DNA of 64,000 bases from Psammoneis japonica (GCA_008632985.1 QPGO01000036.1:520182-584181); one strand, 5' to 3'. Positions 1 to 64,000 are shown, numbered from the stretch's first letter. The notes: generated from the sequence alone by a model not told the origin. Translations and numbers: made by a program.

Positions 1-2368
1 ATTGGGAGGGCAGATGGGGCCAGTCTCGGATCATCGTCTGCCAAGGTCTTGCCAATTGGTGCTGGAAGGAATTGGCGCTGGATCGCGCTCTCCACTTCTG
101 CAAAGGATTCGCCGCAGTCCTTTGCCACCCATTGGATGCATTGCCACTGGTGTTGTGGGGACTTTTGAAGACCGGCACAGGCGGTCTGCGGGTGATGAAT
201 CACTGCATTTGCAAGTCCTTGGACGACCGAGGTCCACGACTTGGCTTTCTCTGCTGGCCATCGGTCGCGTGCGTCCGTCTCTCCGACGAAGCCTCCGAGG
301 TGGCGGCCACCTGAGCAGACAGTGAAGCCGAGGTCTCCAAAGCACGCCCTGGTGCTTTCCAGGTTGCGTTCTGGGACTGCCAGGATGTTCTTTTCGTCAG
401 CGGCAGGGTGGCAACCATGCTTGAGTCCTTCGACTTGAAGAGCCAAGAAAAATTCCCAAAGGATGTTGAATTTCCCAGCTGCAGCAGAGTCGTCGGCGCA
501 CCATGGCGTGAAAGCATCTTGACAGATGTCATTCAACTTGTGGACCAGCGGGAGAATGCCCAGTCCACAGGCCACCATGCCAAGTGGGTCACCCTGCGTG
601 ACACCTTCCTTGCTGAACAGTGCGAAGGCGGTGCCAAAGTGTCCGTGGAGAATTGGGATGCTCCAATGCTTGCAGCTGTTGAAAGTGAACCTGGCGCCGG
701 ATGGCCAGAGGTGTCCAACGTTGCACAACATTGGCACTCTGTTCTCTTCGTTGAATCCATTGGAGGCATCGACGAAGAGGAAGCTGCAGTCATCCTCAAA
801 CTCATGCTGTTCCCAGAGGAGATTCATCGCATGAATCGCACCTTCAATGCCTGCTTCTAGACCTGCACATGGCTGATCCATTCCACAGGCCTCTTTGGCC
901 TCTGCTCCAGCAACTGGGAGAACGGCTTTGGCCATGGCTCATTGCCATGCCTCTCCCATGCCAGCCGGGCGTGCTCCCGGGTTTTTGTCTAGCGCGATGA
1001 GTCGCTTTGCCATGATTGCACGGCAGGCGGCCCATGGGGGCGATTCGTTGGCCAGCCAGTTTGTGAATGTGCATGACGCCTCACGCAGCAATCCACTGGC
1101 TTCTCCGCAGCGGAGTGGCCACTGCGACACTGCATTGGCATCGGATCCACCAAGGCCTGCGCTCCCGGATGGTCGTCGCGCGACGGTCTCGACAGCACTG
1201 TCAGTGATCATGATGTCCTGGAGTTCAGGTGGTTCGTCGAATTTGTGAAACAGGTCTTCTTCCGGAATTCTCGGGTCCGGATGTTTCGATTCTGGTGCCT
1301 CAAACACGGTGTCCTTGGTCTTTTTGTCGATGTCATCGGGTGCGAGTGCTCCACCTTTTTCACGTTCCGAAATGCACCTGACTGCTCCTCTCAGGTTTCC
1401 TCGCAGCACCATTCTGTTGAATGTCTTGGCACGCTGCTCTGGCGTCTCCTCCTTCTGAACGGTCTTCAGATTGCTCTCAAGCAGCAGTTCGGTTGCTTGG
1501 ACCAACATCTTGTGCTTGTCTGTGTCCCAGTCATCCACGCGCCTGGTGAGCAGGGTTCCAATGTCCTTGGCTCGTTTTGCGTTGCGGCCCCACTGCAAAA
1601 TTGCTGCCTGGAACACCACGAACCTCTCCGAGTTCCACTTTTGCATCTTGACTCCATGTGGCAACTCTGCTGATGTTCTGATGAACCGTTTTCCTGCGGA
1701 ACCGTTCGGAACATCGCATCGTTGTGATGGACAGGGCATCAGCCGGTGCCAATGCTCTTGCCAAATTTTGTCATCCGATGTTCCACCATCCAGATGGGAG
1801 CCATCATTGAGGTGACAGGTCTCGCCGTGTGCCTCATGTGTGATTCGTTCCGCATCCAAATTGAAGTCGTTGGGTGCATTGTCGGGGTCGTCATGTGACG
1901 GAATTTTTGCTCCCTCCAAGCTCTCCTTGTCTTCCGGCTGCTCTCTTCCCCTTGAGGCAGTGTCAACCTCCTCACCATCGCTGCCCTCATCAGCATCCTT
2001 CGCTTGATCATTGGGCATGGTGTTTTCTTTGTTGGCTTCGGTGTTGGCCTTGGGTTTGTTCTGTTTGTTGGTGTCATCAGGTCATCCGCACAAATGCCAC
2101 ATTTGCCCCAAATGTGGCACGAACATGGCGTTTTGATCCCAAACGCCACCACTGTTTTTCCAATGCTCCCCAATTGTTTTTCCGTTGACAGCAAAGCTTC
2201 AAACACCACTGGGCACAGGGGCGCATGAAACACACAAGGGAAAATCAATTGGAAGTGGCATTCCAAGGCTTCTGTGTGCACAAGAAATGAGTTTGTCGCA
2301 GTCGGGGGCCACGAATCAATCGCCGGCACGCTTTTTTCGCGCGCAAAACATGGCATTTTATGTGGCAT
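1..2368 (-). mobile_element. Degenerate non-LTR retrotransposon (CRE-like LINE) reverse transcriptase ORF, frameshifted, runs off the window start
   Basis: Minus-strand translation shows RLIALDKNPGARPAGMGE, FVDASNGFN, EGVTQGDPLGM and the catalytic motif as WCADDS (489-503, expected WYADD). Several frameshifts. Only 2 TpA seen in 1-2350. Confidence 0.85.
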
Positions 2369-2445
2369 TACGCAGAATCAGCACCAGTTTCGCCGCAGAA
2401 AGAAATGCCACACATGGCATTGTGGCATTTGCACGGACAACCAAC

Positions 2446-2627
2446 TGAATGAGACAGGCACATGTGCTTTATGACCAAGTGTGCCCTCTCTGACACATGT
2501 GTGTTAACTGGCGCATTGGACATTCAGGAAGCCGTTAGAAGTCAGCTCCGATCAGCAAATGCGCTGATCGGGTCTCTTCTTGGTTCTCCCACAACTTTCA
2601 TCAAGTCATCTCAAGCTAGATCTTGCA
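2446..2627 (+). repeat. Gypsy 5' LTR
   Basis: TGAATGAGAC...GATCTTGCA, near-identical to the split 3' LTR. Confidence 0.95.
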
Positions 2628-2933
2628 CTGTAATTACAGTCACTGTCACAGCTTGTTCATTGCATTGTCAACTTCATGACAACGCGAAGAGTGTTGTCGA
2701 GAAGAGAGAACATTTATTTGCGAGCTCGTGCAGAAAATTTCATCGAAGTCGATCAGAACCGCAGCGCAATTGTGCTCGTGAAATTGGCGATTCGGAGCAG
2801 CATTTGTTCAAACTCGAATCTCGCACTGCTGCTCTTGAATTCGTCATTGTTTGGTTGTTGATTGTTCTTGTTGTGTGGATCAATTGGGGACGTTTTATTT
2901 TGTTTGTCATGTGGATTGTTGATTGTTTGATCA

Positions 2934-4199
2934 TTGAAATTGTTCATCGCCATGTGTCAAGAAGCCTTGGAGAAAGCGTGCACTGAGTGTAAAACCAAAT
3001 TCGTGGATTCTGAGCTGCAGGAAGTGAAGCTCACTCAAACCTTTGATGATGGCACCAAACTTTCAAAAGTGTGTCCCATTTTCACAGGAGAGCATGGAAT
3101 TGAATCATTGTTGCACGTGGAGGATGGGTTCCGGAAGGTGGCAAGACAGCCAGATTGTGACACCGGAACAGAGTTGTTTGGTGCTTTCGAGGATTGTCTC
3201 CAAGGAACTGCAGAGGCAAAATGGCAGAATGTTGCCGCGGGCATTCCACAAAATCAACGGACGGCAGCTCAATTTGATCAGGCTGTTTCATCCTGTTGTC
3301 TGCGCTGCGTGAAACCGACAGCTCGCGACATGATGAAGATGTGTTTGCCCACTTGCAAAAAGCCTTGCTCAGCGGAATCTGAAACTCACATTGATCGCAT
3401 GGAGACGTTGTTTCATTGCACCAACCGTTTGCCTGGTGCCATTCCTGCACTTGCAGAGCAGGAGCAGAAAAATGTCATCTTTTGTGCCTTCCCTTTGACC
3501 TGGCAACAGCCCCACATTCGTGCGGGCAAGAACCTTGTTGCGGATTCCATGGTTGACATCCAAGCCTGCATGAGCAACAAGAAGGTGTTTGCCGATGGTC
3601 AAGATGACAAGAAACGCAAGTCCAGCAATGGCAATGGAGGGAACTCCAGCAACAAAAAGGGCAACCATGACAAGAAGGATGATGAGGGCCAACCGAAGGC
3701 AGGTGATCCATGTCCAGTCCCGTGGCACCATGGAAGGCATGCGTGGGGCCAATGTTGTGACAATCCAAACAACCCCAACTTTCGTGGGCCTCAGAACCGT
3801 GGCGGTCAAGGAGGAGGCCGTGGCGGTGGAGGTCAAGGCGGAGGTCGTTTCCAAGGAGGCCCTGGTCAAGGCCGTGGAGGCGGTGGATGCTTTGGTGGTC
3901 GTGGCAACCAGAACCAAGGAGGTCGTGGTGCCTGTCACAACAACAACAACAACGGAAATCAAAATGACAATGGCAACCAAGGTGGTGGTCAACATTGTCA
4001 CAATGAAAACAACAACCGTGGAGGCCAAGGACAGGCCGACGGATGTGCTGCTCAAGCAGACAACATGAACAATGACAACCAGGCTCGAGAAGCTCCTCGT
4101 GGTGATGTGCACCATTTCGATGTGATCGGACGAGGCCCTCCACGATGCGGAGGTGTGGCGAGGTTTCAGCCGGATGGGCAGTTTCCTCGGCAGTTCTGA
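2934..4199 (+). pseudogene. gag: Gypsy gag (zinc-knuckle-like CP..HH..H.W..C followed by a Gly/Asn-rich tail)
   Basis: 421-aa ORF directly downstream of the LTR, with no Tyr and excess Cys/His. The true start is probably further upstream (~2677) behind a frameshift. Confidence 0.75.
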
Positions 4200-4337
4200 G
4201 AAGAAGGAGCTGAGTGCTCTGGAGCTGAGTGCTCCCAATTGCCTGTGAGAGAAGCATTTGTTGAAGAAAATGATTGTGTTTTGCCTGAATGAAATGATGA
4301 ATGTTTTGCTTTTGATTGTTTTGAAAATCCTGACGAA

Positions 4338-7300
4338 TTGTCACCTGTTGAATTTGAAAACACTGCAGAAAATTGCATGAATGAAGAGGGGGATGTGTTT
4401 GATCAAGATGCATTTGAACATGACACTCCTCTCCCCAAAATGAGTTCGCAAGTCTCGCACACCGCATTGGTCCCATCTACACTGCTTGTTGCAAAATCAA
4501 TGCAACGGCATGAGTCAAATCGTGTGATGTGTGTTTTGTTCGATTCAGGTGGTTCTCACACTGTGATTTCATCCCAAGTTTTGCCTCGAGGAGCCGCACC
4601 ATCCATTGACGAGCATGGAGTCTGAGCTTTTCAAACCATGGCAGGTCCTTTCCAATCGGGTCGTTGGGTGGCCTTGAGCGACATCGTGTTGCCAGAATTC
4701 AACAAAACTGGAAGGATTGATGGATGTGTGGCTCACGCATTCGATGCTCCGTGTGCATGTGACATCATTTTGGGTCGAGATTTCTTGGACAAGATTGGTC
4801 TCAACCTGAGCTATGACACGAGGACACTGCGATGGCCAGACCGTGTGATCCCAATGAAGGAACCTCGTCATTGGTCCAAATCCCACAATTGGTGTGTGGC
4901 TTTAGATCGAATGGATGAATTTGATGAAGATTGTGAAGATGAGTCGGACTGTGGATGCAATGATGGGTGTGACAACTGTGTGCTCGACGCCAAGCATGAA
5001 GCAACGGATCCAGCGGAGGTGGTTCGGAACTTGGATCATCTCACGGAGGAGCAAAAGAAGAAGCCACCAGCGGCATTGGAAAAATGTTTGACCTTGTTTG
5101 ACGGAACTTTGGGGCACCATCCTCATGAAAAGGAAACGGTTTTGAGCGATGTGGAGCGGCATTTTTATCCACTTCGAGGTGCACCTTTTCATGAGGACAG
5201 TGGACCTGCGGAATGGGCAGCCGGTGCCTTCATCACTCCGAAGAAGGACGGCCGAGTGCGATGGGTGTCCGATTTTTGGGAGCTCAACAAGGTCCTCAAA
5301 TGAAAAGCACATCCTCCACCAGTTGTTCAAGATGTGCTGCAGCGGAGAGCGGGCTACAAATTCTTCACGAAATTGGATCTCACTGTGCCCTGCTGCAATT
5401 TGGAACTGGACAATGAAAGCAAGGAGCTCGCTACAATTGCAACTCCGCATGGGAAGTTCCAGCATTGTCGCATGGCTGTGGGATTGAAGCCAGCTCCAGA
5501 CATTGCTCAGTCCATCATTGAAAAGATCCCACATGGTTTGGATGTTGAAACTTACATTGATGATGTTGGTGCATTTGACGCTGACTTTGATTGCCATCTC
5601 TCTTGTCTTGACAAGGTGCCACATCGTCTCGAGAAGAATGGTTTGAAAGTTGACCCATTGAAGCGCGAATGGTGTGTCCAAGAAACCGATTTCCCAGGGC
5701 ATTGGCTCACTCCAACTGGAATTAAACCGTGGAAAAAGAAGGTTGAGGCAATCCCACGAATGTAACCTCCGTGGGACACTGCTCAGCTCTGGTCGTTTCT
5801 TGGTGCAGCAACCCACCATCGCAATGTGTGGCCTTGCCGTTCTCACCTGCTTGCACCTCTGACTGAATTGACAGGCAAGAGTCAGTTCCAATGGACAGAA
5901 TCATGCCAGAAAGCGTTCAAGGAGATGAAGGCAGCAATCACGGCGGAAGCGTTGATGGCCCACCCCAACCACAACCTGCCATTCCATGTCTGCACCGATG
6001 CATCAGACTGCCAGATGGGTGCCGCCATTGTTCAAGATGGTGAACCTGTGGCGCATTGGTCTAAGAAGCTCTCGGCAGCTCAACGAAATTGCTCAACAAT
6101 GGAAAAAGAACTCCTGGCTGTCGTCATGTGCTTCAAGGAATTTCGCTCAATGTTGCTCAGTGCTGATGTCACTGTTCATGCTGATCACAAAAATCTCACC
6201 TTTCGCACTTTGAATGCACAGCGCATCCTTCATTGGCGACTGTTTCTCGAAGATTTTGCGCCTGCCTTTAAGTGTGTCGAAGGCAAGGACAACGTGCTTG
6301 CCGATTGTTTTTCTCGACTCCCACGCATGGATCCACCTTCGGAGGGGAAGAGCCTTGGGCCAAGCAGTGAACGCAAAGGAAAAATCATTCATTTTGAAAA
6401 GTTGGATTCCAAGGAACTGAGCAAAGCCGAGGAAGAGGAAGATTTGGAGTTGGGCGCTTGCAGGTTCAAGTGTTGCCGTGCTCCGGTTGATCTTCTGATG
6501 AGTCTCACGCCACCTTTTCCTCTCCACTTGATGAGCCTGAATTGTTTGAATGCTTTTTGAATCACCCGACGCTGGACGAAATGCCGAATCCTGCTGAGAC
6601 ACCAAGGACACAACAGCTCCAGTTCGAAGATCTCCAACTGAATCAGCAAAGACAACAAAATCCGCAGCAGTTCGTGGTCAAGATTGTGAATCATTGCCCC
6701 CTGATTTGTCATCGTTTGCATCTGAATGATCCGCCTGGAGCCTGGAAAATTTGCATTCCTGCTGCGTTGTTGCCAGATGCCATTGCATGGCGCCATCGTG
6801 CATTGGGCCATTGTGGAGTCGTGCGATTGCACGAAAGTGTTTGGACTCACACGTGTCATCCTGCATTGCGTCGATGTTGCAATGAATTTGTTTGCGATGC
6901 GTGTCAACAATTTAAACAGCTGGGTCCTGGACATGGAGAATTGCCTCAACGTCAAGCACCTTTGGCTCCGTTGACGGAAGCAGCGGTTGATCTCATTGGA
7001 CCGTGGAAAACACCAATTCAAGACCAAGAGATTGAATTCAGCGCTCTCACTTGCACTGACACTGTCACTGGATTGACTGAACTCGTGCGCGTTGACAACA
7101 AAACTTCTCAGCATGTGACTGACAAGTTTCGCAACCTTTGGTTGGCTCGTCATCCCAGACCGAATCGATGCATCCATGACAATGGTGGAGAATTCATTGG
7201 CTGGGAGTTCCAGATGCTGCTAAATCAAGCGGGCATTGCTGATGTGCCGACGACGTCTCGAAATCCTGCAGCCAACTCCATTTGTGAATGAATGCACCAA

Positions 7301-7807
7301 ATGGCAGCTGACATCGTGCGCACTGTGGTTGTTGCTGACCCACCTTTAAATGTTCAACAGGCCGAGCAGATTGTGGACGATGCCCTTGCTGCAGCCTCTT
7401 GTGCTTTGCGATGCTCCCACTCAAGGTCCATGGGTGTTTCAAGTGGGGCTCCAGTGTTTCAACGTGATGTGATTTTGGACTTGCCAGTTGTCTCCCACCT
7501 TGCTGCGACACAAGCCAACCAACAAGTGTTGATCGACAAAAACCTGCGACAACAGAATGCGAAGCGCCATTCCTGCGATCATCCAGTTGGTCAAGATGCA
7601 CTGATCAAGTCGGTGGATCCTTCAAAGTTGGAAGAACGAGCCTGTGGTCCGTTTCGAATTGTGCAAGTCCATGCCAACGGGGCTGTTTCGGTGCTGCGAG
7701 CACTGCACGTCATTGAGCGAATTAACATTCGCCGCGTGGGTGCCGCATCGGAGTTGAGGGTTTCTTCCCAACGTCTGGGTTCCCTTCTCCGTGGGTGCTG
7801 GGTTTGA
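4338..7807 (+). pseudogene. pol: Gypsy pol (protease, RT, RNase H, integrase), disrupted
   Basis: Protease LFDSGGSHT (~4537). RT PKKDGRVRWVSDF and YIDD (5553-5564). RNase [27 protein letters not shown]. Integrase H..GH..CDAC, VDLIGP, HDNGGEF, NSICE. In-frame stops at 4623, 5301, 5763 and 7289, plus frameshifts. Confidence 0.95.
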
Positions 7808-8214
7808 ATTTTAGTCAAGTGGTTCCAATGGTGCGCGTGTTCCTTGCACCATGGAGGGGAAGAGTGAATGAGTGACAGAAATTGAAGGCAAATGGCAAGA
7901 ATTCAAACAATGACTCCTTGCTGCTGTCTAAATGGCAGATGAGTCTCCGCTCAGAGACCGTTGCAGGAGCCGAAAGACGTGCAAGTCGGTGCAATCGGGC
8001 CACTGTCATTGTTCTTGTGAGCCTTGTGGCTCAAAAGCAAACTGCATCGCACGCGAACGCGCGGAACTAAAGCACACAAAACTGTGCGCGGCAAACTAAA
8101 CAGCGCACGATGTTTCGCGCACACCCAAATCCTGTTCAAATCCTGTCACTCCCCAGTTTGCTTGAGGAGTCACAGAAACAGATTCGACTTCGGATTGACT
8201 AAAGAACTTTGGAG

Positions 8215-10221
8215 TCAAAGCACCAAAACATGCGGAGACAAGAAAGGATCAAGATCCAAGAGCAACGTTGCATTCTCCAAGTGGGTCATCTTGAGATGAG
8301 CTGCATCTCCCCAATTGCAGATGCCGTTGTGCTTTTCAAAGCTCAAGGCACACTTGGGATCTTGTGGGATTCCACATCCGCATTTGCAATGGAAGGAGCA
8401 AAGCTTGGTCTGGTTGACAATGTTGAACGGCGGGGCAACATTGCAGGCGGCATGGCGTTTGCACGACTCGGGGAACAGAGCAAGCATGAGTTCAAAGGCA
8501 CAAGCGGTGGTCTTGTGTTCCACCAATCTGATTGCAAGCTCAGCTGCATCTCCTGAGAGACTGATCCAATTGGAGAAACGAGTCTCAAGGTGCAAGCCTT
8601 CGGGGATCGGATTGGAGCAAGACATCTTGTGGTGCAAGGCTGCAGATGTCTGATTGGGGCAACCAGCCCTGTGCTGCAAGACTTCTGGGATCCAAAAGGA
8701 CTTGCCAGTCTTGTGACACGAGTCTTCGGGGATCCAATCAGGAGGCCAAGTCTTGAGGTGCGAGACTTGGGGGATCCAATGAGGAGGCCAAGTCTCGTGG
8801 CGCAAGACTTGAGGGATCCAATCCGGAGGCCGAGTCTTGAGGCATGAGACATGGAGGATCCAATTGGGAGGCCCGGTCTTGAGGCACGAGACGTGGAGAG
8901 TCCAGTTGGGAGGCCTGGTCTCAAGGCACCAGACTTGGGGCATCCGATCAGGAGGCCCAGTCTCGATGCACGGCACTTGGGGCATCCAATCAGGAGGCCC
9001 AGTCTCGAGGCACGAGACTTGAGGCATCCAATCAGGAGGCCCAGTCTCGAGGTGCGAGACTTGGGACATCCAATCAGGAGACCTGGTCTCGAGGTACGAG
9101 ACTTGGGGCATCCAATCAGGAGGCCCAGTCTCGAGGTACGAGACTTGGGGCATCCAATCAGGAGGCCTGGTCTCGAGGTACGACACTTGGGGCATCCAAT
9201 CAGGAGGCCCAGTCTCGAGGCACGAGACGTGGAGAGTCCAGTTGGGAGGCCTGGTCTCAAGGCACGAGACTTGAGGCATCCAATCAGGAGGCCTGGTCTC
9301 GAGGTGCGAGACTTGAGGCATCCAATCAGGAGGCCTGGTCTCGAGGTGCGAGACTTGGAGCATCCAGTCAGGAGGCCTGGTCTCATGGTGCGATGCTTGG
9401 AGGATCCGAAGACAACGAAGCTGCTTGGATGTCCTGAACTCCCCATCTGATGAACCGGTTGAACTGTTGTGAACAGATTCAATGACGGGAAAAGGAGGCT
9501 CCCCATCAGGAGATGCGAGAAGCAAGTTGTCATCTCCATCACTTCCCAAACGAAGACTGTGAAGGGTGACAGCAGTCGACACGTGGAGGTTGGCAGCACA
9601 TGGTTTGCGGGGTGCAAAGACTGCAGCTTTGGAAGCCATGGGTGGAGTGTCCCAACTGGTCTCGAAGTGCGGGCCTGTGCAAGGGCTGCAATCCTGCACT
9701 GGGCCGAGGTTGCTTGCAGGCAGGTTGGTCAAGACATGCGGGGCGCGACTGACACCACTTCCAGGGGACACCTGAGTGGTGGCACAGTGCAAGGCTGGTG
9801 TCAAAATGGCACTGGGTTCACCTGGTTTGGATGGCAAGGGACTCGGCACAGGTGCGGAGGGTGCTGCGCCAGTGGCCAGAGAGGTCAAACAGTCCGGACC
9901 AAGGCGGCAGTTGCGAAATTCGTTGGGTGTGAGTGACTGGGGTTCATTGGTCACATCATCACCGTTGCAAACTTTGACAAAGTAGAAGCTGATCAAAGCT
10001 GCCAGGAGGTTTCTGTGGGTCCATGGCAAAGGCACTGCATTGGCGCCGTCTCTGCAAGTGAGGGCGTCAATTTGGGTGGGTGAGAACGTGAACAATTCCT
10101 CGCACGATTCAACCCCATTGATGGACAGGGCAGAACGAAGAGGGCTGTCATCGTCTTGATTGAGCACAGTGCCTGGAATGCATTTGAAGCTTTCGGTTTG
10201 TTGCTGTTGCGTGAGAACCAT
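8215..10221 (-). CDS. Copia-like gag N-terminus fused to a 14-aa repeat array and a short pol-like remnant (~668 aa, probably non-functional)
   Basis: MVLTQQQQTESFKCIPGTVLNQDDDSPLRSAL resembles diatom Copia gag starts. The C-terminal DPKCALSFEKHNGICNWGDA resembles the pre-RT segment of Copia pol. Confidence 0.55.
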   Translation of the reverse strand: MVLTQQQQTESFKCIPGTVLNQDDDSPLRSALSINGVESCEELFTFSPTQIDALTCRDGANAVPLPWTHRNLLAALISFYFVKVCNGDDVTNEPQSLTPNEFRNCRLGPDCLTSLATGAAPSAPVPSPLPSKPGEPSAILTPALHCATTQVSPGSGVSRAPHVLTNLPASNLGPVQDCSPCTGPHFETSWDTPPMASKAAVFAPRKPCAANLHVSTAVTLHSLRLGSDGDDNLLLASPDGEPPFPVIESVHNSSTGSSDGEFRTSKQLRCLRILQASHHETRPPDWMLQVSHLETRPPDWMPQVSHLETRPPDWMPQVSCLETRPPNWTLHVSCLETGPPDWMPQVSYLETRPPDWMPQVSYLETGPPDWMPQVSYLETRSPDWMSQVSHLETGPPDWMPQVSCLETGPPDWMPQVPCIETGPPDRMPQVWCLETRPPNWTLHVSCLKTGPPNWILHVSCLKTRPPDWIPQVLRHETWPPHWIPQVSHLKTWPPDWIPEDSCHKTGKSFWIPEVLQHRAGCPNQTSAALHHKMSCSNPIPEGLHLETRFSNWISLSGDAAELAIRLVEHKTTACAFELMLALFPESCKRHAACNVAPPFNIVNQTKLCSFHCKCGCGIPQDPKCALSFEKHNGICNWGDAAHLKMTHLENATLLLDLDPFLSPHVLVL
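8690..9385. repeat. 42-bp tandem repeat, ~16-17 units
   Basis: Unit GGCATCCAATCAGGAGGCCTGGTCTCGAGGTACGAGACTTGG, encoding ETRPPDWMPQVS(Y/H/C)L on the minus strand. Confidence 0.95.
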
Positions 10222-11458: not shown

Positions 11459-11632
11459 ACAGGCACATGTGCTTTATGACCAAGTGTGCCCTCTCTGACA
11501 CACGCATGTTAACTGACGCATTGGATGTTCAGGAAGCCGTCAGAAGTCAGCTCCGATCAGCGATTGCGCTGATCGGGTCTCTTCTCGGTTCTCCCACAAC
11601 TTTTATCAAGTCATCTCAAGCTAGATCTTGCA
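11459..11632 (+). repeat. Gypsy 3' LTR (distal part, after the nested insertion)
   Basis: Matches 2454-2627 and is followed by TSD CCAAC. Confidence 0.95.
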
Positions 11633-23795: not shown

Positions 23796-23796
23796 G

Positions 23797-52870: not shown

Positions 52871-52939
52871 CATAGAGCATGGGGCCATGCTATTTGCGCT
52901 GTCAAAACAGGGAATGAGGAATTTGGGTTCTGCAGTCGA

Positions 52940-54365
52940 AAACGTTGCGAGGTTGACGAATGAATGAATCGATGAGCTCCGCAGCAGAAAGGTAGAATCG
53001 CGTGTTGCAAAATGCCAAACGATGGCATGATTGTTGAGATGCGTGTGAATTTTTTGCAAGAACAGAGACACAACTGCTGTGATTGGTGCCGGCACCACTG
53101 TGTCGGTTGAGAAGTTGGCCCAGTCATTGGAACAATGTGATGAGACTGTTTGTTCTCATGTTGTCAAGCATGCAAAACCAGATTTGTTTCTGAAGGAAAC
53201 CATCAAAAATCTCTACCACGAATCACTCAAGCAAAAGCGAGCTCAGCATTGTCTGAAGCTGTGCAAAAAGCAACAGCTGATGATGAGCTTTTCTTGGTGC
53301 AAAATGACGAGGTGCCACTTTCTGCATGGAAGAGTTCACGCAGATTGTGGCAACACCCATCCTGCCACCCAGGCAGTGGCAAAATGACAAGCTGCACACA
53401 CACATGAAACAAGCCCATGACATGAGGACCGGTGTTCCAGACAATGTTTTGGCCAGATGCCGCGATGTTGCAATGGTCGCAACACGCAACTTGGATGACA
53501 CCAAGGTGTTGCTGAAGGATGCATGGAACAAAAAGATGTGGTGCCCATCCAATGACAGCAAGGGCACTGAGAATCCTGCTGTCCCACTCAGAAGTCATGC
53601 CTTGTTGCGCTGACACCTGGAAGCAAAGTGAAGTTTTCCAATTTGATTTCCAAGCTGAAACTCAAGGGTGTGCCAAGCTCTCCATGCCGGAAGAGCATGG
53701 CAGCAATTCTGTTTTGTGCCGTGTTCTCCAAGACGGCCTGGATGACTCTGCCTGGCATCATCAATGACACCAGCGCTGATGCTGCCGTGCAAGAGGCAAG
53801 GTTGCTGGCTGGTTGGTGGTGTGGGCTGGTCTTGGCATTGATGAGTTGTCATGTCTTTCCACACCATTGCTCATGTTTGTCGCTTGCACACTGCAAAGGC
53901 AAAACAATGAAGTCTTTTTCATTTTGTGGCCGTCGTGCTCTTGCTTCAGCCCGCTCGCTTCTTTTTTTTTGGCTCCCTCCTTGATCCAAGAACACTTGGT
54001 CTTCATTTTCAAGGCACTGAGCTTGTTCTTGCATGCCTTTGGAGCCTCTGTGTGAGCTTGTTTCTCATGAAGACACTGCAGGCTTGTTTGACGAAAGATT
54101 CCTTGGAGGGGGTGGCAACATGGCTTTCCAAGACAGCAGCAGCTGTGGAGTTTTTGGTGTTCAGCAATTTCTTCCCCTGCCTTTGCAAGTTCACTTTTCA
54201 CTTCATCTTGGTCCTCTGGACTCACTCTCACTCCTTCAGTGGCCTGAGATGAGGCGAGCATTGAGCAATGACAGCGACAGCTTTCTGTTGCATCATGCAG
54301 TGTGAGATTAGCGCGAGGCACTCTCCATCGTTTTGCTCTGATTTTTTGGCACAGGCCTGGCACAA
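52940..54365. repeat. Decayed TpA-depleted block
   Basis: About 3 TA in 1.4 kb and Cys/His-rich spurious ORFs. Confidence 0.55.
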
Positions 54366-54689
54366 GCCGTAACAGACTATGCGATGTTAAAACAAAAAAC
54401 GGCACAAGCTGTATCATCACGTGCTTCATACAATACAGTGCGACCGATGGGGAGTGCTACATCGCGGGAAGGTTCGCGGAAGAACCGGTTCTGAGCCACA
54501 TTCAAACCCGCCAATCCGAAAATGGCGCGCGAGGTCCAGATGCGAGGTCCAGAGTCCGCAGATGCATGACGAGTCGTCGTTTCGCACAAGAAGGACATCC
54601 ATGGAGAAGCAGAGCGGCACGGCAAAGCAACACCAATGCTTCATGTCAACTGAACCTCGCTGTAAACGTGAAGACGATTGTACCATATC

Positions 54690-57600
54690 ATGGCTCAGCA
54701 AAGCATAGAAGCAGTGGATCCTTCAGTTGCAGCTCTAGCGGCTGTTACAGCGTCGGAACCTACCTCGTCGACTCAAGGGCTCCATCCAACGTCGATTCGT
54801 GCTGAGACGTTGCGAGAACTGAAGCGAGGAGACCTCGTTCGGGTTGTAGATGGGTACGTGAAGCAATACGTTGTGATACTGGGATATGAAAGCCTTATTC
54901 TCACTTTCCCCACTTCAATTTAAAAAAAAAACTACTTGCTCTCTCAGAAAACAATCAGGCGGTCGAGGCCTCGGTCGAATCATTTCTGTATCGACTCCTC
55001 AACCAGACTCTCCCGTACGATTCAATGTGGAGTTTGTGCTTGGCGGACGTCTCTCGAGTGTTGAACGGAATCAATTGATCTACACGACAGCTGATGCAGA
55101 AGGCCTGACGCAAGAATCGAGGGGACAGCGCCGTACCGCAAAGAAACCGGCAGAGGAGTCTCTCGAACCAAAGTCAGCAGCAGTGCCACCCAAGAAGAAA
55201 GCGAAGAAACGTAAGAAGGCCGCTACAACAAAGCCTAAAAAAGTAAAGGCGACAACGAAGACAAAAAAGAAGCAAACTACCAAAAAGACAACGGCTTCTG
55301 CGAAACGGGGCAAGTCGAAAAAGAACGCCCCTCCACAACCGCCACCAACGACTGAGGCAAGCACTACCATACCAACCAAGTCAATTTATCAACGGCACTT
55401 GAGAGAGTTCGAGAAAATTCTAACCAGATTGGAAAAGATTGATCGTTTTGGATTCTTTTTGAGTTTGTCGTCAGCCGACGATCTTGGTGTTAGTATGGAA
55501 GAAAGCCCTGGTGTAGACACGACGCCGATGGTGAATTGGAAGACGATACGAGAACGAATGCAAAAGGATCGATACGTCTTAGACCTTCAGGAACAAGAGC
55601 AACAAGAATCGTCCAAGGCATCGTCAGTGACTTTGCAGCATCCAAAAGCAGTTCATTGGGACCTTTTTCGAAACGATGTGATTGACATGTGTAACGCTGC
55701 CATTCGACGAGATCCCATGGGCGATACCGGTGGGTCAGGGACACTGGGATATGCTGCGAGAAAAATCAAAGATGTGAGTGTCAAGAGAATGCATAATGTT
55801 TATTGTTCAAATATGTCGTTTAGACGTACAACGAGCTGACTCTCCCCTTGCGATCTTTTTCCATTTCTAGGCCACGGAACAAGCGTACGAACGCACTGGA
55901 CGTCGACACCTGAATGAAATTAATCTTGCCAATGCACGTCAGAAGTACTCGGCGGCATTGCATGCTTCAGAGAACAACGAGGCTGCCTTTCAGGGAGAAT
56001 GGAGACGAGATCCGTTTGCCGAACGAAAATACGAACGTCTCTACGACCAAAACGTGATTTGCGCCGGACTCTCCGAGTTGGATCAACGCAGTGCCATTTA
56101 TGAGCTACAAACTTCTATTCCCGACAGCTTTGTAGGACTGTCTTACAAATTTGATGACGTAGGACAGAGCGAAGGATGGATGAAATCTGTGGTCGACAAC
56201 ACCGCTAGAAAGCGGAAGAGAAAAGACGAAATAGAGGAGCGAGAGCGTGCTGCCGCCGCCTTAGCGGCAGACAATGGCGTTGTCCGAGCACAGGTTCAAG
56301 CCAGCATGCAAACTATGCTGATTGCGGTACACGACAGAGTCATGACGGATAAAGGCGTTTTGAACGATGCAGAGCTACGAAGCGCCAACTGGGAAAAAGC
56401 TAGAGATGCGGAGACGAAAAGCGGAGAGGGTATTCCTAACTCGTCTATTGTATCATCCGAGCTGGACAATGTGGACGAGAATCCTTCGGGATGCGAGCTA
56501 GTGGAACAGCCAGTCTGGGGGTTGGACTGCTATACACGACGCAACATCACAATGTGTCTCGAGTCAGAGTTCTCTCCTGAGGTCGCCTACGAATTCGTTG
56601 AAAAGTGGTTACTGCCGGCAATAAATGCCTGCCCGGTTGAGATTGCTCACAATATTTCTTATGCTACTCGAATTCTAGAGGGCCTGCCTCTTGAGGAGGG
56701 TTCAATAAACGACGTCGACGACAATAGCACTGCTAGCTACCGGGGCGAATTCAAGGGTCAGTGGAGCAACTCATTGTTGGGGAAGGCGCTTTTGGACAAG
56801 ATTGAAACGTCCGGACCGAAATGGTTAAAGTCGGCGGCACGAGAGCTTCGGCTCGCATACGAGGCCATGGGGGCTGACTTTTTTCGTGCCCACCCAAAAG
56901 GACACGGTTCGCTTGTTCTTCGACACGACGGAATCCCGGCAAACACCCTTGTCACTTTCTACCGAGGGGAAGTCTACCCGCCGTGGCGATGGTCAGAAAA
57001 GATGGATGCTATTGAAATGACCCAGACAGCACTTGGACGGACACCAGTCCTTCCTGATTTCTACAATATGGTACTAGAGCGACCTCAGGTTGACCCTCGT
57101 GGTTACGGTATGCTTTTCGTGGACGCATCTCGAAAGGCTGGCCATGGGTCGTCATTATCGCATAGCTGTGAACCCACCTGCGAGGTCAGAGTGTCAGCCG
57201 TAAATGGGCAGCTTTGCTTGGCAATGACGACGCTCCGAGAGGTAGAGCAAGGCGAGGAGTTGACGTTCGACTATAACGCTGTGACGGAGTCGTTGAATGA
57301 ATACAGGGCCGCTGTCTGTCTTTGTGGCTACCGGAAATGTCGGGGTTCATTTCTTCATTTCGCTACTGCCGATTGCTACCAACAGGTCCTCAGCCGGAAT
57401 TGCCCTATCGCAGTGCGTTTCGCCAATCTTATCAAAGGGTGTATGAAAATGGTCATGTCGGGAGAAGATGAGAAAGTCTTGAGTAGGCACGGCTTTGGAA
57501 CCGCTGCCTTTGGAGCGGTTGGCTTCAATCGCCACACACAAGGGAAAGATCCTCTTGATTCGATGGAGTATGTCCCAGTTTGGCTTCGTACATATGTTGC

Positions 57601-60600
57601 TGACACGCTGAGGTACATTGAATATGAACGAAGGGCTCTTCCGATCGCTCTTTTGTGTGACCACCTTTCTACCACTGGCGCAGAGCAATCCCCAAGGCAA
57701 GCGAAGAAAAGGATGAAAACGTCTCTTGAACCGAAACTGGACTGCGAGGCAACAAGTATCTCATCGGTAGCCGGTAACGAATCGTCCAAGCGCATCCAAG
57801 GGTCAAAACCGATGCCAGTGTTCTTGTTCTTTGCCGGGAAACAGCAGGGTTATTTTCTTAAATTGTTGCGAGAGCAAGGAGGTGCCGATTTGAAAGGAGC
57901 AGCATTGAAACGAGCACTTCAAAAAGTTGCAGCAAGTAGCTGGAAGGCGCTGGGGGAAGATAGAAAACAGTATTGGAAGGATCGGGCTGTGGAAGAATGG
58001 GAGCGTAGTGGCGGGAAAGAAAAAGCAAAGCTCGAGGAAGAACGGAGCAAATGTCATCAGTCAGCGGACACGAGCGAGAGCACAAATTCTAATGCGGATT
58101 CTACTATAGAGAGCGTGCCGGAGCAATCGAATCCCAGCCGAAAAGGCTCAGAAGCTAGTAAAGATTCTGGTAAAGTGAAGAAGAAAGGCTCAAGATCAAA
58201 AAGGAAAGACTTTGTTTGTCCCAGCAAGATCTCATTTGAAGCCGCTGATGCCGAAGGTGTGGCAGCTATGGAACAGCGAGTTCAGCAGCTGACACAGACA
58301 TTGAGTCGTGTCGGCCGAGTATTGGACAGGCATCGCGAAAGTACATTCGGCAACTCTGAATCGTCATGTCCTAATGTGGTCTCACCAGCGTTGTTGAGGG
58401 GTAGGATACATTCTCCGATCTCGATAATGTCCGATCTGGAGGTTGTAGGATGGATATGGAATCACCATGACGGAGTGGTACAATCGCTTTCCCGGATCAT
58501 CGACACAGAAAAATGCGTCAGTCCTTCTCTCCGCAAGTCACTTCACGACACTGCGGACAAGTACAAAACGCTCAGAGCGATTGAGAACCCAGCGGAAAAG
58601 CCTACTGCGATTGCTCCCTGTACGATGTCTGGAGCAGAGGCGAGGAAAGCGCTGAAAGCAGCTCTTCTGGAGTTTCGGGAAGTACTGCTGAAGGGTCTAG
58701 CGGACATGGAGGCGGATCGGAAGAGGCACGCCAGGGCCATGGCGCGAAAGAGGGCTCACGCAAGACGGGAGCGGCTTAAAAAATTGAAGCAAGAAGCTTC
58801 TGAGGCAGGTCCGGATGTTGGCACAAACATGCAGAATCGGCCGGAGGGGCCCCTGCCCATTGCAGGCAGCAATGTCGATGCTTTGGCCAGCTCTGTTTCA
58901 ATAAATAATGTAGTCGATTCTGTCGTGGCGAATAAAGAGGAAACGACGACCGGGACAGCGATCCAGGCAGACCATAGTGCTCGAGGTGATGTCGAATCAC
59001 AACAGGCTTCTTCGATCGTGTCTCAAGTGCTACATGGCATTGTAGAGACTATCGTTTCCACCCATTCCAGCGAACAACGTTCAAAAATTGTGGACAATAG
59101 ATCAAAGCCCGAGCCCGAAGTCCCAAAGCTCGGCAAGTGGATGAAGCATTACAGTGAAAGGGGGGTTCTTTTTGCCGCGGCTGACCTCCTTCTGATTTAT
59201 GCCCATACAAGCACTTTCTTTGTTGTGAAGCCGTACCTGGCGTTTGAGTCTACTCCAATTGAAGTCTACGCCAGAGAATTGGGAAGCGCTATCCCAAAAT
59301 CTGTGATGGACGCCGCGAAAGTGGTGAGTGATTGTGCACCTGACGGAGATGGAGTAAGTGGAGGCGATGGAAACGAAGAAACGCCACTTTGCCACGAGAA
59401 TGGTCCCGGCGATCCTGCACCACGAGGTTCAAATACGCATTCATCGAGCGTCGATGACCGCCAACGCTTCACGGATTCCCCAAATGGAACGGACACAGAT
59501 ACAGATTCACCCGAAATACAAAATGCAGACATAAGTTCCAGGAGTGCTGATCTACCAGACGAGATGGACAACGGAAACGGAGACTCGTCGAAGACGTGCA
59601 ACTCCCTGATCGACAAGAGCGAATTTGTCGCCGGAGGTATGTCTTGCTCGTAGTGCGGATTTTGTTGCTTCAGTTTTCATCGTCTCACCTCTTCCTTTTC
59701 TAGCCCGATTCGATGTCCTTCGGAAAGGAAAAGACAAGCCCTGTCCCGGTGTAGTCACCGAGACTGAATTCACACCACAGGTTGAAAGAATAAAGTTTCA
59801 CTTCCCGCGAATGAAGACGAAGTTTGATGAGTGGGTTGAGCTGGGCTCCAATCGGATATCTCGCATTGCGAAAAATCCTTTGAAAAGGAAGGAAATCAAC
59901 GCGAAACGGGGACCCGTAGCCGAGACGACGAAGGCAGAAAATTCCAGTTATTGCGAACCTGATGATATTATCACAAACGTTGTTGTAAAATATCATGGCG
60001 ACTATGTGCTATCCCAGCTCTTGCAGTGGTACAACGGGGGAATAGGTCAAAAGCCTGGTATGCCCGACCTTATGGGGTGTGCGTTGCTACCCCCTTTGTC
60101 GTCCTGCGTTTCGCACTTCGAACGGAAGGACGAAAAGTCAGAAACTGTCCCCAAGAAAAAATCAAGTGAACAAACCTACTACGAAACTGAAGTTCGCAGA
60201 CTATTGAAAGAATGGTTCGAAGATGCCAGCAAGCGCGGCAATCCTTGGCCCGACGAGCTCAGAAGAGCCTTCTGTACGCCGCATTGCCAGCATAGTCCAA
60301 CAACTGCTTGCAATGATTTCATGCCCTTCGGATCTCCGGTTTTCGACTTACTGGTGACCGGGGATGACGCAAATCTTAACCAGATTGTGCTAGCGTTGAC
60401 GGAGCAGTTGACCACAGGCGAAAGTGACGAGGTACCTGGTGTAGGTGGCAAACGAAGGGCCAAGTCTGCCACAGAAAAGCTGCAGTCGTCAGTTGATTAT
60501 GGTAGGCCAGCTCAGGCTGTTGCAAATTGGGTTCAGTGTGAAAATCCCCATTGCTTGAAATGGAGAAAACTTCCTTGGTTCGTCGACGTTGATGTGCTCC

Positions 60601-61995
60601 CTGAAGCGTTTTTCTGCAAAGACAATATTTGGAATCCAGACGCATGTAGTTGCGAGGCACCAGAGGATGCATGGGACGAAAACGAGGACCCTCAACTCGG
60701 AAGCAGCCCACAAAAATCCGGAACAGGGCAGAAAAGGAAGCGGATCCAATCTTGCCCACCAAACAAGAAAGCCAAGTCAGGGGAAAAGAGGGACGGCGCG
60801 CCACTATGTCCCCCGGGAAACAACAAGATTGACAAGAGAAGTTTCGTACGTGGTGGTAAGTACGAAAATTTTCTTTCCGATATGCATTTTCGCTTCTTAC
60901 ACTGAGAGGTTGTGCTCATTATGATTCATAGCACGTTTCACAGTATCACGATATGGTTATAGGGACAAGGTTGTGCGCAGCGAAGCTGTTGTGATCGAAA
61001 CAGCAAGCGAGGGTGGTGTTCTGAAGGTCAAGTTCCATTTTTTGAGAAGGCAGGCGAAGTTTGACGAATGGTTGAGAGCAGATTCCAATCGCATATCGCC
61101 GCTTGAAAACATAAAAGACGATGGATTGGTTCGTGAAAGTCGAGCCAGCACTGAAATATCGAAAGACTCCGGCGAAAATGAAAAAGCGAACCAGCCTCCG
61201 GCGACGAAATTAGCGGCTGTTGAAAGGCGAAGCTTTGTCGAAAAGAGCTCGAATAGCGATCGACCAATGTCAATTTCCAGTGAAGATCCCGTGGCATCAG
61301 TGCCTCATGGTAGCTTCAGCGCAAATGCTGCGGAGCACTCAAATTCCTTTGTCCCCCCTCCTCTAGCGGCTCCAGTGCTTCCACAGAAAAACATTCAAGG
61401 AGTTGTGTCACCCACTACCACAAGTGGTACAGCACTCCCAAGGGAATGCATGCAGCCGTCGCTAACGCCTCCAGTTATTCCACAGATTAGCAATCAAGCA
61501 GGGATGGCTCGATCTAACAAAAGTGCTTCAGATCAAGCAAATGCCTGCATTCCGCCGTCTTTTGCCCCTCCGACATTTCCACAGAATAATCATCAAGGAG
61601 TACTGGATACACACACTCGTCAAAATGCGGCAGCAACAGGAACGGGAAACAGAGAGGTCTTGCCGTCGGGGAATCCCCATGCTTACCCGCCGCCGGGTCC
61701 TCAAGGATTTGGAGGATTGACTCCTTGGCAACCAGAGGTAGCTTCGGGGAACTTCAACCGGGAGATTCTGTTCAAGCTGAATCCACAAGCACTAACGTCG
61801 ACTGTGGGCATGCCGATGCCGACAAATTCACTCCAACCAGTGCCCTCATTTCGCCATGAGATGAGTTGTGACGGTTCTATAGCAGGCAATGGAAATGCTG
61901 CATCAATGATCCCTTATCAGTACGGCAACTCGGTGGGAACAATCCCGCACGCGAATATTTCTAGTCTTTCAGCTGAAAAGCGTCGTTTTCACTGA
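54690..61995 (+). CDS. Large SET-domain histone methyltransferase of ATXR3/SDG2 type with bromo-like, HMG-like, zf-CW and chromo-barrel/Tudor-like modules (exons 54690-54853, 54948-55773, 55871-59636, 59704-60855, 60932-61995; ~2323 aa)
   Basis: GEVYPPWRWSEK, PDFYNMVLERP, SHSCEPTC, ELTFDY and post-SET CLCG...CRG. zf-CW NWVQCENPHCLKWRKLP..C...WN....C. Two KFHF.....KFDEW modules. All introns are GT-AG and in frame. Confidence 0.9.
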
Positions 61996-62099
61996 TGCGG
62001 TACCATCATCTGGAAACCTCAATAAAAAATAATAACTTTCAGAAGAGCACCAGCATCATACTATACCGCCATCGTGTTGCACTCGCTCGCTCCGCTCCG

Positions 62100-62235
62100 G
62101 TTACAGTAGAGCGAGAGCATACCATACGGTAGATAGCTGGGCCTACTCTCTCTACTCTAGTAGCTACTGCTACTCTCTAGAGTAGAGCTTGTACTGTAGA
62201 GAGTAGGACCGTAGCTGCTAGAGTAGCAGCAGCTC
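62100..62235. repeat. CTAG/TAG-rich low-complexity tract
   Basis: CTACTCTCTCTACTCTAGTAGCTACTGCTACTCTCTAGAGTAGAGC. Confidence 0.7.
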
Positions 62236-62239
62236 TGCG

Positions 62240-64000
62240 TGATGGCACTTCTTCATGGAGCGGGCGGGCGCCAGGGGCTGCAGAGCTTCTCTGCCGACTG
62301 GGCATCTTGTGCAGGAAACCAAGGGACATCACCATCATAGGATCTTGGGGCCAATGTCACAATGGCCTGTTGAAAGTGAGCGTGTGCCAAGTCTTTCCCC
62401 ATTGACAGATGAAGATTGTCGAGCGGGGTGAGCAACATGGGGGCAGCTGCAGAGGCATTCACACAACTCAAGAGCTTGCTGTCACAGGACCAGACAACCC
62501 ACTCCAGCCAAAGGCAGGGCTCCATGTGATGTGGTCCCACAGATTCCATGTGCAAGCTCTGCAGCTTGCAGCCCAGTCAATGGATGCATTCATCATTTTT
62601 GACACACTCAAGTGAAGAACAACCAACAAGGCACCACTTCACAGCTCACAGATGTTGAAGAGTGGCTTTGCATGCAAAAATGTGCCAAAAGTTGTTGAGT
62701 GGACAGCCCAACAACTGTGCTGCAAGGTGGCACAAAATTCCACCAAAGTCAAGCAGAAATGCAAGTACACGACATGTGGCACATGCTGATGGGGCAAAAA
62801 AAAACACCAACATGTCACAGACCAGCAGCACAGGCCATCCCACCCAGAGCTGGAGCTTGTTGAAAATGAAGCCAAGAGATGGAGGGCATTTTTGTTGAGC
62901 CACTGTTGTTGCAGTGAGAAAGTTTGGATGAGGGTTCTTGCACACTGTCAACAACATGTGGAAAGGTCAATGGACACTTCTTGTGATGGTTTTCAAGTGG
63001 ACGTGGTGCTGCTGTGGTCAGTGCACAAAAGAGCCAGAGCTGATTGCTCTGTTTGGGTTTGCCCATGTGTCTTGCAAGCTGTGCAGCAGGCACCATGGGT
63101 TTGTGTGAGTGCATCTTGCCATCATTTTTTCTCAAGTTTTAGTGCAAAAATGTGCGGTGGAGTGCATTGACTCCCATGGCAATGACAGCTCTTGCACTCT
63201 TTGTGCACGCAGAACCCGCCACATGGCACATGGCAAGCACCAATTCCATCTGAAGTGGCAGGTTGAAAATTCACAAAACCATGCCAACTTCAATGAAAGC
63301 CACTGTTAAGTTGGCTGATGCATGATGGAATTGGCATGTCAGCAGTGCTGTCAAAAAAGCAGCAAGAAAAGTCCAACATGACAGAGAGCTGGTGTGTGTC
63401 ACTCACTCAACTTGTGCACCAATCTCTTTCTTCTCTGGCCAATCCTCTCCATCATCTCATGTGCTGGGGGGTGCATTCCAGACACAGGTGGGAATCAATC
63501 TGTGTGACATTGGGCCAGCAGAATTCCATGTGCAAGCTCTGCAGCAAAATTGTTGGGCAATGAATGTGTCAACGACAGACCATTTTGCATGGAAGAAGGC
63601 CAGACAAAGTGGGGTGCGTGGAAGATTTTGGCCTCAAACTGCACCACGGGGACACAAAGCCACAAAGGACAGAACATTTGCATTGTCATGGGAGTTCATA
63701 GTTTGCCACACCCCTGCTGCCATGTGGAAGGTTCAACAACTTTCTCAAGAGAAGCCACGAGCTTGGTCTTCAAGGAAAAGTGACTGGCTTTGACGTTGCC
63801 AGACTTTTGCACATGTGTGCCCGACAACGCATGCATGCATGCACAAATGGAGACTGCGGCCCTTTGTTGCAGGACTTTTCTTTGACATTGAATTGTCTCA
63901 CCAGAATGTGTGGTCTTGGTGATGAGCTCTTTGTGGCTTTCAATGGAAGAGACTCTGAATGGAAGAGGCACGAACGTGCCACAAGAGACAATGCCAACTC
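62240..64000. repeat. Decayed TpA/CpG-depleted block running off the window end
   Basis: About 5 TA in 1.75 kb. Confidence 0.55.

Follow-up and report, generated by a model that had tools for sequence, protein, structure and literature searches.

The closest described counterpart of the process reported here comes from the alga Bigelowiella natans. A recent preprint (Mettrop et al., bioRxiv 10.64898/2026.01.13.699255, dated 2026-04-14) reports that 231 of 302 de novo mutations in mutation-accumulation lines lay in two integrated viral regions. Mutations there arose at ~6e-7 per site per generation, a local rate ~1000-fold over the genome baseline; nearly all were A>G or T>C, all such changes were on TpA, and an ADAT2 homolog was proposed as candidate. 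Here we analysed a 64,000-nucleotide stretch of the diatom Psammoneis japonica (GCA_008632985.1, QPGO01000036.1:520182-584181; denoted the window, positions counted from its first letter). The data indicate that a host process very probably turns T:A into C:G at TpA in the chromosomal DNA of transposons and satellites. Its signature makes it a process of one kind with the TpA hypermutation measured de novo in B. natans. An earlier, sequence-only reading of the window had proposed such hypermutation as a process without a description; this last point does not stand, since TpA>TpG/CpA hypermutation has been described, very recently, in this one preprint on an unrelated alga, though not in diatoms.

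The two cases share several traits. In both, the change is exclusively TpA>TpG/CpA and affects both strands, only foreign or mobile DNA undergoes it while the remaining genome is normal, and a single-copy region can be a target. B. natans also carries TpA-poor clusters rich in CpA and TpG, with coding sequences enriched in DDE endonuclease and reverse-transcriptase (RT) domains, as is likewise seen here. The cases differ in host, a member of Rhizaria there and a diatom (Stramenopiles) here. The nucleocytoplasmic large DNA virus (NCLDV) region of B. natans has a TA observed/expected ratio (o/e) of 0.45, whereas the TA-poor blocks of the window, at 0.02-0.07, are near saturation. Targets in B. 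natans include integrated viral DNA, whereas no viral insertion was recognised in the window by Pfam scans of 142 open reading frames (ORFs) of at least 90 aa (E up to 0.01) and 131 ORFs of at least 45 aa (E up to 0.5). The rate was measured de novo in B. natans, whereas the estimate obtained here from pairs of long terminal repeats (LTRs), ~100x background, is indirect. The window shows the signature element by element, in three transposon classes and two tandem arrays and with ancestral states. Strong CpG loss accompanies TA loss here, whereas the words 'CpG', 'satellite' and 'diatom' are absent from the preprint text available to us. A literature search, with most subscription journals outside its coverage, yielded no report of TpA hypermutation in diatoms, and in the accessible main text of a mutation-accumulation paper on P. 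tricornutum (PMC6604790) 'hypermut', 'TpA' and 'transposable' are absent. The present case adds a further lineage, a signature close to saturation, proof given for each element in turn and with ancestral states, satellites among the targets, and a distinction between TA loss and CpG decay.

Other known systems resemble this one in part. Fungal repeat-induced point mutation (RIP), too, is an irreversible, dinucleotide-specific transition hypermutation that kills mobile DNA. It changes C to T mostly at CpA and creates TpA (PMC2621366), whereas here TpA is destroyed and G+C raised. RIP is triggered by duplication, whereas here a duplicate lies in normal-TA DNA and a single-copy stretch is hit; in addition, there is no leakage into the flanks, and the host is not a fungus. 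CpG decay by 5-methylcytosine deamination also yields TpG and CpA and is present in the same blocks, yet it cannot remove TpA, and at 1-11347 TA was lost with CpG largely intact. The view of the sequence-only reading that neither RIP nor CpG decay can produce the pattern was thus confirmed, TA being removed instead of created and its loss occurring at a CpG o/e of 0.68. In animals, APOBEC3 and ADAR bring about deaminase-type, context-dependent hypermutation of mobile elements; they act on cDNA or RNA in retrotransposition and are strand-asymmetric, whereas in the window the affected sequences include a DNA transposon and satellites, changed in situ, TG is balanced by CA, and conserved Tyr became Cys 18 times versus His 12 times. 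Within the Stramenopiles-Alveolata-Rhizaria (SAR) lineage, dinoflagellates make 5-hydroxymethyluracil (5hmU), an enzymatic base modification that replaces T preferentially in TA (and TC), shows enrichment on repeats and silences transposons; in the available part of the source (PMC11572971) this is an epigenetic mark without reported mutational erosion, and TpC is unaffected here.

The whole window has a G+C content of ~49% and a TA o/e of 0.36, with a deficit that is uneven along its length. Two-state segmentation on TA positions called seven TA-poor blocks (1-11347, 14781-17316, 22795-23943, 32441-35594, 36783-46020, 52892-54308 and 62225-64000). They sum to 30,617 bp with 96 TA (3.1 per kb), compared with 1,424 TA in 33,383 bp of non-block DNA (42.7 per kb). 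At the non-block density ~1,306 TA would be expected in the blocks, and the binomial probability of the 96 seen computes as 0. Host DNA in the window has a TA o/e of 0.43-0.68. These counts agree with the initial observation that TpA is almost absent from transposon and satellite blocks and ordinary in the intervening DNA; the two TA that had been counted in 1-2350 are exact, at 858 and 990. The block coordinates given at that stage are close to ours, except that the stretch 32470-46020, taken as a single block, holds an island of 1.2 kb with near-normal TA (35595-36782).

Comparison of dinucleotides between blocks and non-block DNA gave o/e ratios of 0.08 for TA, 0.45 for CG, 1.46 for CA and 1.44 for TG, while the remaining 12 dinucleotides lay at 0.90-1.11 (AA 1.09, TC 0.92). 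Arithmetic on the o/e values shows ~1,046 TA and ~1,064 CG missing (~2,110), in near balance with a surplus of ~995 CA and ~974 TG (~1,970). TG and CA are even in all blocks (skew at most 0.112), and both strands are about equally affected. The blocks have a G+C of 0.486-0.521 versus 0.446-0.499 in normal DNA; as TA loss and CpG loss cancel in G+C, scans based on G+C are expected to miss such regions. Among stop codons, the blocks contain 38 TAA and 25 TAG (63 together) versus 781 TGA, and they bear many long overlapping ORFs on both strands that match no family, for example one of 779 aa at 8218-10554(-). The loss of TAA and TAG produces such long spurious ORFs on both strands, which are likely to be mis-annotated as genes.

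The block edges are step-like, and the flanks show no depletion gradient, with 6.6 TA on average in the first 100 bp outside. Since segmentation sets the edges at TA positions, the step is partly built in; the missing gradient is not. We also observed that these first 100 bp (6.6 TA per 100 bp) are richer in TA than DNA further away (~3.2-5.5), which may reflect an insertion preference for TA-rich sites.

To read the ancestral state, the coding elements of the window were aligned with public homologs, and only columns where the homologs agree were scored. The set for the Ty3/Gypsy element comprised 59 homologs (the first 60 in a list of 120, without the Tyr-poor protein P0202; 70% occupancy, 70% consensus; 325 columns). 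The set for the PIF/Harbinger DNA transposon comprised 59 homologs of at least 250 aa that are not Tyr-poor, from the top 70 of 150 (60% thresholds; 86 columns), and the set for the RT-bearing retroelement fragment the first 60 of 120 homologs (270 columns). Pooled over these three unrelated elements, the 34 conserved Tyr columns read Cys in 18, His in 12 and Phe in 2, with Tyr kept in 2, that is, Cys or His in 30 of 34. Taken singly, the 18 Gypsy columns gave 7 Cys, 8 His, 1 Phe and 2 kept, the 6 Harbinger columns 4 Cys and 2 His, and the 10 columns of the RT element 7 Cys, 2 His and 1 Phe, its frame having 0 Tyr in 693 residues. Conserved Lys was kept at 32 of 33 pooled columns; in Gypsy alone Lys was kept at 22/22 and Gly at 22/24. 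The other Gypsy replacements follow the same rule: each of the six Leu>Pro changes has a CCA codon, derived from CTA, each of the three Val>Ala changes has GCA, derived from GTA, and a T precedes every one of the three Met>Val and three Thr>Ala changes. Along the Gypsy sequence, Cys and His were not clustered at 15 Tyr sites (7 runs versus ~8.5 expected).

We then asked how many replaced conserved residues each rule can derive. TA>TG/CA alone accounts for 33 of 64 in Gypsy, 24 of 61 in the RT element and 8 of 22 in Harbinger; CG>TG/CA accounts for 8, 8 and 2, and neither rule for 23, 29 and 12, respectively (Gypsy columns past residue 1185 were dropped, since the frame is lost there). All motifs from which replaced Tyr codons had originally been read are present: WCADD at 489-500(-), DASDC at 5997-6011(+), RNCST at 6084-6098(+), HTGHK at 37126-37140(-) and EWSCG at 36704-36715(-), as well as VHADH and KCVEG in the Gypsy pol. 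Together, the dinucleotide ratios, the Tyr columns and the balance of TG and CA sustain the proposal of a mutational, TpA-specific change to TpG/CpA on both strands.

The relatives of these elements are normal in Tyr. Homolog medians are 3.55% for Gypsy, 4.8% for Harbinger (0.7% in the window Harbinger) and 2.0% for the RT element, and the closest Gypsy relatives, P0121 and P0122 (71% identity), have Tyr at 22/23 and 23/23 columns. P0202, a public Gypsy protein 57% identical, carries the same signature, with 9 Cys, 4 His, 3 Tyr and 2 Phe at 18 Tyr columns, and the window is therefore probably not unique. A second candidate carrier, P0497 of Fragilaria crotonensis (Tyr 0.8%), was rejected, as its conserved Tyr columns are 6 Tyr and 4 Leu; the Tyr-poor Harbinger homologs P0300 and P0303 have just 3 conserved Tyr columns each, too few to judge. 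At the DNA level, environmental loci of the same Gypsy clade had a TA o/e of 0.42-1.08 in 78 of 78 cases. The families themselves, then, are not TA-free, a possibility that the sequence-only reading had left to be checked.

The change took place on genomic DNA and TA was the ancestral state, because TA, TG and CA coexist at single sites among tandem, array and LTR copies. The Harbinger transposon contains a 183-bp repeat in four tandem copies (35684-36407), which read TA, CA, TG and TG at one dinucleotide and TGCA, TGTG, TACA and TGTG at the neighbouring pair. TA is visibly ancestral in this repeat, whose copies arose when a unit inside a cut-and-paste element was duplicated in tandem, so that neither RNA nor RT played a part. 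In a 42-bp minisatellite (8717-9384, 15.9 copies by TRF), one column has TA in 3, TG in 3, CA in 8 and CG in 1 copies, and another CG in 10, TG in 3 and CA in 2. These columns keep ancestral survivors, hence TA decay and CpG decay can be separated here. Four columns of the 189-bp satellite switch between TG and CA among monomers; ancestral TA and ancestral CG are indistinguishable there, both being gone.

Two LTR pairs allowed the change to be scaled. The LTR fragment at 2448-2628(+), the 3' part of the family, lies 5' of the Gypsy internal region and is 94% identical to 11453-11633, with mostly TG/CA doubles, TA/CA singles and CpG-type changes. The fragment at 7873-8148(+), the 5' part of the family, is 94% identical to 11178-11453, with four TG/CA double differences. 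At pyrimidine-purine sites the two pairs read TA/TA 6, TA/TG 1, TA/CA 3, TG/CA 6, CG/CG 21, CG/TG 4 and CG/CA 5 times, with 3 differences in 224 other sites. Had the six TG/CA sites been CpG, ~0.4 would be expected at the observed CpG decay. Of copy-sites, ~16 of 32 TA and 9 of 60 CpG had changed, with a background of ~0.7% per copy, so that TA changed ~100x faster than background and ~4x faster than CpG; these values are rough, as they rest on recognisable sites and ignore concordant ones. The process runs much above background and faster than CpG decay. By comparison, a control duplicate in normal-TA DNA (18963-20015 and 23797-24870) has 141 differences, including 35 isolated transversions, with one CA/TG among 21 doubles.

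Together these results indicate a process that acts about equally on both strands, each ancestral TA ending as TG or CA, and halts sharply at element boundaries. Older copies come close to saturation, Tyr codons becoming Cys or His, CTA Leu becoming CCA Pro, GTA Val becoming GCA Ala, and TAA and TAG stops being removed. The process would be enzymatic and may serve genome defence. As the single likeliest chemistry we tentatively consider deamination of the adenine after T by an enzyme of the TadA/ADAT type. Such deaminases naturally act on tRNA A34, which follows a conserved U33, and a 5'-T preference would be inherited from this. TpA is its own reverse complement, hence the sequence cannot tell adenine from thymine as the base that is hit; the earlier wording that the process converts A to G goes too far in this respect, as a T change gives the same result.

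A route through thymine is unlikely, and fares best among the alternatives. On this view, the thymine of TpA in silenced repeats would be oxidised by a TET/JBP-type dioxygenase, yielding 5hmU or 5-formyl-U, and the oxidised T would mispair with G at replication to give T>C; the strand that is hit would then show TpA>CpA and its complement TpA>TpG. Oxidised thymine does mispair with G, and owing to the self-complementarity of TpA all sequence results fit this route equally well. However, 5hmU pairs normally with A in most settings. The dinoflagellate precedent cuts both ways: TET/JBP-made 5hmU on TA and TC in repeats silences transposons in that SAR group, but this 5hmU also favours TpC, whereas the TC ratio here is 0.92, not depleted, and the accessible text of the source (PMC11572971) reports no mutagenic outcome. 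It is possible, albeit doubtful, that diatoms and chlorarachniophytes have in common an old, dedicated enzyme system for genome defence, which would recognise chromosomal DNA that is silenced or foreign and change T:A to C:G at TpA in situ, with the DNA double-stranded. Its activity might be the mutagenic side of a SAR-wide base modification at TpA that is akin to dinoflagellate 5hmU.

The TA loss is independent of CpG decay, a result that bears on a second alternative. Block 1-11347 has lost 93% of its TA (o/e 0.07) with a CG o/e still at 0.68; a greater age is presumed for blocks that have lost CpG as well (o/e as low as 0.03 per 500 bp). Conversely, two environmental Gypsy relatives, L070 and L075, have CpG o/e of 0.11 and 0.27, yet TA o/e of 0.76 and 0.81, indicating that CpG decay does not entail TA loss; they represent ordinary methylation-type decay without the TpA process. 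The alternative supposes that deamination of methylated CpG recruits mismatch repair, in which a Pol-eta-like polymerase errs A>G at WA motifs. TA>TG is a known Pol eta hotspot from somatic hypermutation, and CpG loss and TA loss coincide in several blocks. Nevertheless, we consider such patch repair very unlikely: in addition to block 1-11347 and to L070 and L075, the LTR TA sites change faster than the CpG sites, and the WA motif includes ApA, yet the AA ratio is 1.09 and Lys codons are kept. Pol-eta-type repair, one of the candidates named at the outset, is accordingly disfavoured.

Sequencing data were inspected for the possibility that modified bases in transposon DNA (e.g. 6mA, 5mC) had been miscalled, TA and CG being only seemingly replaced. 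Run X1 contains 1,043 of 1,043 sampled 31-mers of 46021-56000, a segment that includes block 52892-54308, at a word depth of ~61. An X1 contig of 5,018 bp (depth 61) covers 11730-16746, spanning host DNA and a TA-poor block, with 1 differing letter, and a second covers 16814-17272 with 0 differing letters. Raw error-prone long reads would not give such agreement, which makes a base-calling or polishing artefact unlikely and answers the concern, raised with the original observation, that assembly or polishing had created the pattern. Of 1,058 places at which paralogous copies differ from the window, 946 show a transition. In a subset of 40 of the 1,090 rows, a TA in paralogs from the same run stands opposite a window TG 7 times and opposite a window CA once; the reverse occurs in 1 row, and two further paralog pairs are CA>TG doubles. 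Older nanopore base-calling did make systematic A>G miscalls at methylated motifs, and the locus-bearing runs all come from the probable source sample. With the matching contigs, the paralog differences, TA standing next to TG and CA among tandem copies of one element, and the same Tyr>Cys/His pattern in the separate public protein P0202, we regard miscalling as highly improbable.

Least probable of all, to the point of being negligible, is that ADAR-like A-to-I editing of element transcripts was fixed by reverse transcription, or that the elements lack TA by nature: a 5' U is favoured by ADAR (10.64898/2026.01.13.699255) and two of the three coding elements are retroelements, but a DNA transposon with intact terminal inverted repeats (TIRs), its inner tandem copies and two tandem arrays are affected, strands are equally hit, LTR copies diverged by TG/CA after duplication, and relatives are normal in TA and Tyr. 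For the DNA transposon and the satellite and minisatellite arrays RNA editing is ruled out; the DNA-level nature of the change, as opposed to RT error or RNA editing, had been asserted from the start and is upheld by these same elements.

Within the window the change is confined to mobile and satellite DNA, and the process appears to target DNA for being a transposon or satellite, not for being repeated. The control duplicate, 1.1 kb and 82% identical, sits in normal-TA DNA. A ~109-bp tandem repeat at 25467-26207 is not hypermutated and lies in the TA-richest part of the window (TA o/e ~1.0). On the other hand, the TA-poor stretch ~14781-16008 is single-copy at a likeness of at least 85%. These three cases show that repetition is not the trigger, and the description of the process as repeat-targeted is not supported. 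Targeting may instead depend on a silent-chromatin or 'foreign DNA' mark. The two parts of the duplicate are probably host gene paralogs; the first, 18963-20015, is covered in a further run, X2.

Several points weigh against the process as proposed here. The evidence is drawn from one 64-kb window, and the locus-bearing runs are three runs of one sample, probably the source, with no independent individual among them. The activity could be ancient and now extinct. In each retroelement 23-29 replaced residues are explained by neither the TA nor the CpG rule. Depletion is patchy in one element, the island 35595-36782 being unexplained by simple targeting of whole elements. No TA-depleted locus was found among the 78 metagenome loci; that survey took the best 80 of 470 confirmed matches, favouring intact copies, and is no measure of prevalence. 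Finally, the surviving TA have a context bias, blocks versus normal DNA having TTAA 17 versus 52, CTAA 24 versus 120, ATAT 0 versus 92 and ATAC 3 versus 196; selection (e.g. on LTR signals) could account for this instead of enzyme preference, and with 96 survivors it is a lead only.

The first block opens with the RT-bearing retroelement fragment (1-2447, minus strand), whose frame, 3-2081, has one internal stop and is cut by the window edge. It has 285 homologs (best E 8.8e-200), some with PF00078, with named matches in Fragilaria crotonensis and Cyclotella atomus. Pfam gave no RT domain for ORFs in 1-2447, and a PDB sequence search with 3-938(-) gave chance-level matches only. Among five intact homologs of this element no endonuclease domain was found; RVT_1 was present in three, and two had no family. 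Of the element classes first named, Ty3/Gypsy, the PIF/Harbinger DNA transposon, an RT-bearing retroelement and the 189-bp satellite were recovered, whereas Copia had no Pfam match and the LINE assignment is unproven, given the five homologs without an endonuclease domain.

The Ty3/Gypsy internal region (gag-pol, 2629-7872, plus strand) contains RT at 5304-5762, RNase H at 5766-6557 and integrase at 6491-7288, with Pfam matches to RVT_1 (5.8e-11), RT_RNaseH_2 (3.7e-29) and rve (2.4e-6). This copy is dead, with 5 in-frame stops and at least one frameshift. Downstream of the second LTR fragment is an unclassified TA-poor repeat without a Pfam family (8149-11177), inside which the 42-bp minisatellite lies, and then a complete LTR copy (11178-11633, plus strand) at the edge of the first block, which is only partly depleted and retains shared TAs. 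Over 7338-11339 we observed a summed contig depth of 50,000-120,000 versus 61 for unique DNA; summed depth is not copy number, and the LTR family and the adjoining repeat appear to have very many copies in the genome.

The Harbinger transposon is complete (4,216 bp, 34136-38351, minus strand) and is inserted in the 189-bp satellite array. Its TIRs of 26 nt (34136-34161 and 38326-38351) are 92% complementary; a target-site duplication was not unambiguously readable. Transposase frames lie at 36913-38208(-) and 36479-37165(-), the latter with DDE_Tnp_4 (Pfam), and there is a second long ORF at 34408-35568(+). The central island (35595-36782) keeps 38 TA (o/e 0.43) and is an unsaturated state of the process. 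The left part of the satellite array occupies 32441-34135 (array from about 32612) and is TA-free and CpG-poor. The right part occupies 38356-40511, where 38356-38529 is 92.5% identical to 33179-33352.

The remaining blocks are unclassified. One at 14781-17316 is poor in TA and CpG (o/e 0.05 and 0.11), one at 22795-23943 has 4 TA in 1,149 bp and no Pfam family, and a heavily decayed one at 40512-46020 is poor in both dinucleotides (CG o/e 0.03-0.45 per 500 bp) and has no Pfam family. The block at 52892-54308 has 2 TA in 1,417 bp, and the last one (62225-64000), poor in TA and CpG and cut by the window edge, has 5 TA in 1,776 bp and a CG o/e of 0.21. Across all window ORFs scanned, the only Pfam domains in blocks were those of Gypsy and Harbinger, and the CpG-poor blocks gave nothing beyond chance level.

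Host genes with normal TA include one with a DUF6824 domain (46459-47403, E 1.2e-30) and one with a fatty-acid desaturase domain (27459-28304, E 8.2e-14). Three consecutive plus-strand ORFs at 55958-61995 encode a SET protein whose C-terminal region is of SDG2 type (55958-59653), a zinc finger of the CW type (59625-60905) and another 340 aa. The best named relatives of the SET/SDG2-type protein are in Cylindrotheca, Attheya, Nitzschia, Thalassiosira and Skeletonema, at no more than 66% identity, in keeping with a diatom host. In relatives, zf-CW, SET and SDG2_C are combined in a single protein of 1,300-2,100 aa; the three ORFs probably belong to a single gene interrupted by short introns or a frame change. 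In a host gene made up of ORFs 12191-13264 and 13358-14338, an X2 contig joins 13240 to 13334, omitting 93 bases (13241-13333) with GT..AG ends. This looks like a spliced intron, and X2, a run listed as 'DNA?', behaves like RNA there. No run listed as RNA contains the locus. X2 has no cover over most TA-poor blocks.

If the process is genome-wide, diatoms, which are major and genetically tractable primary producers, have a transposon-killing hypermutation with a chemistry opposite to that of RIP. Hypermutated transposons escape Pfam, most of the blocks being without a family. A second SAR lineage makes a one-species case a candidate for a widespread defence, and it narrows the enzyme search by phylogenetic profiling, deaminase versus TET/JBP. 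The finding also suggests that nature has an activity which changes A:T to G:C in genomic DNA specifically at TpA. Should the enzyme prove to be shared between the two lineages, a context-specific editor of A:T to G:C in genomic DNA would exist in nature, as a counterpart of RIP outside the fungi with opposite chemistry, testable in diatoms that can be genetically manipulated.

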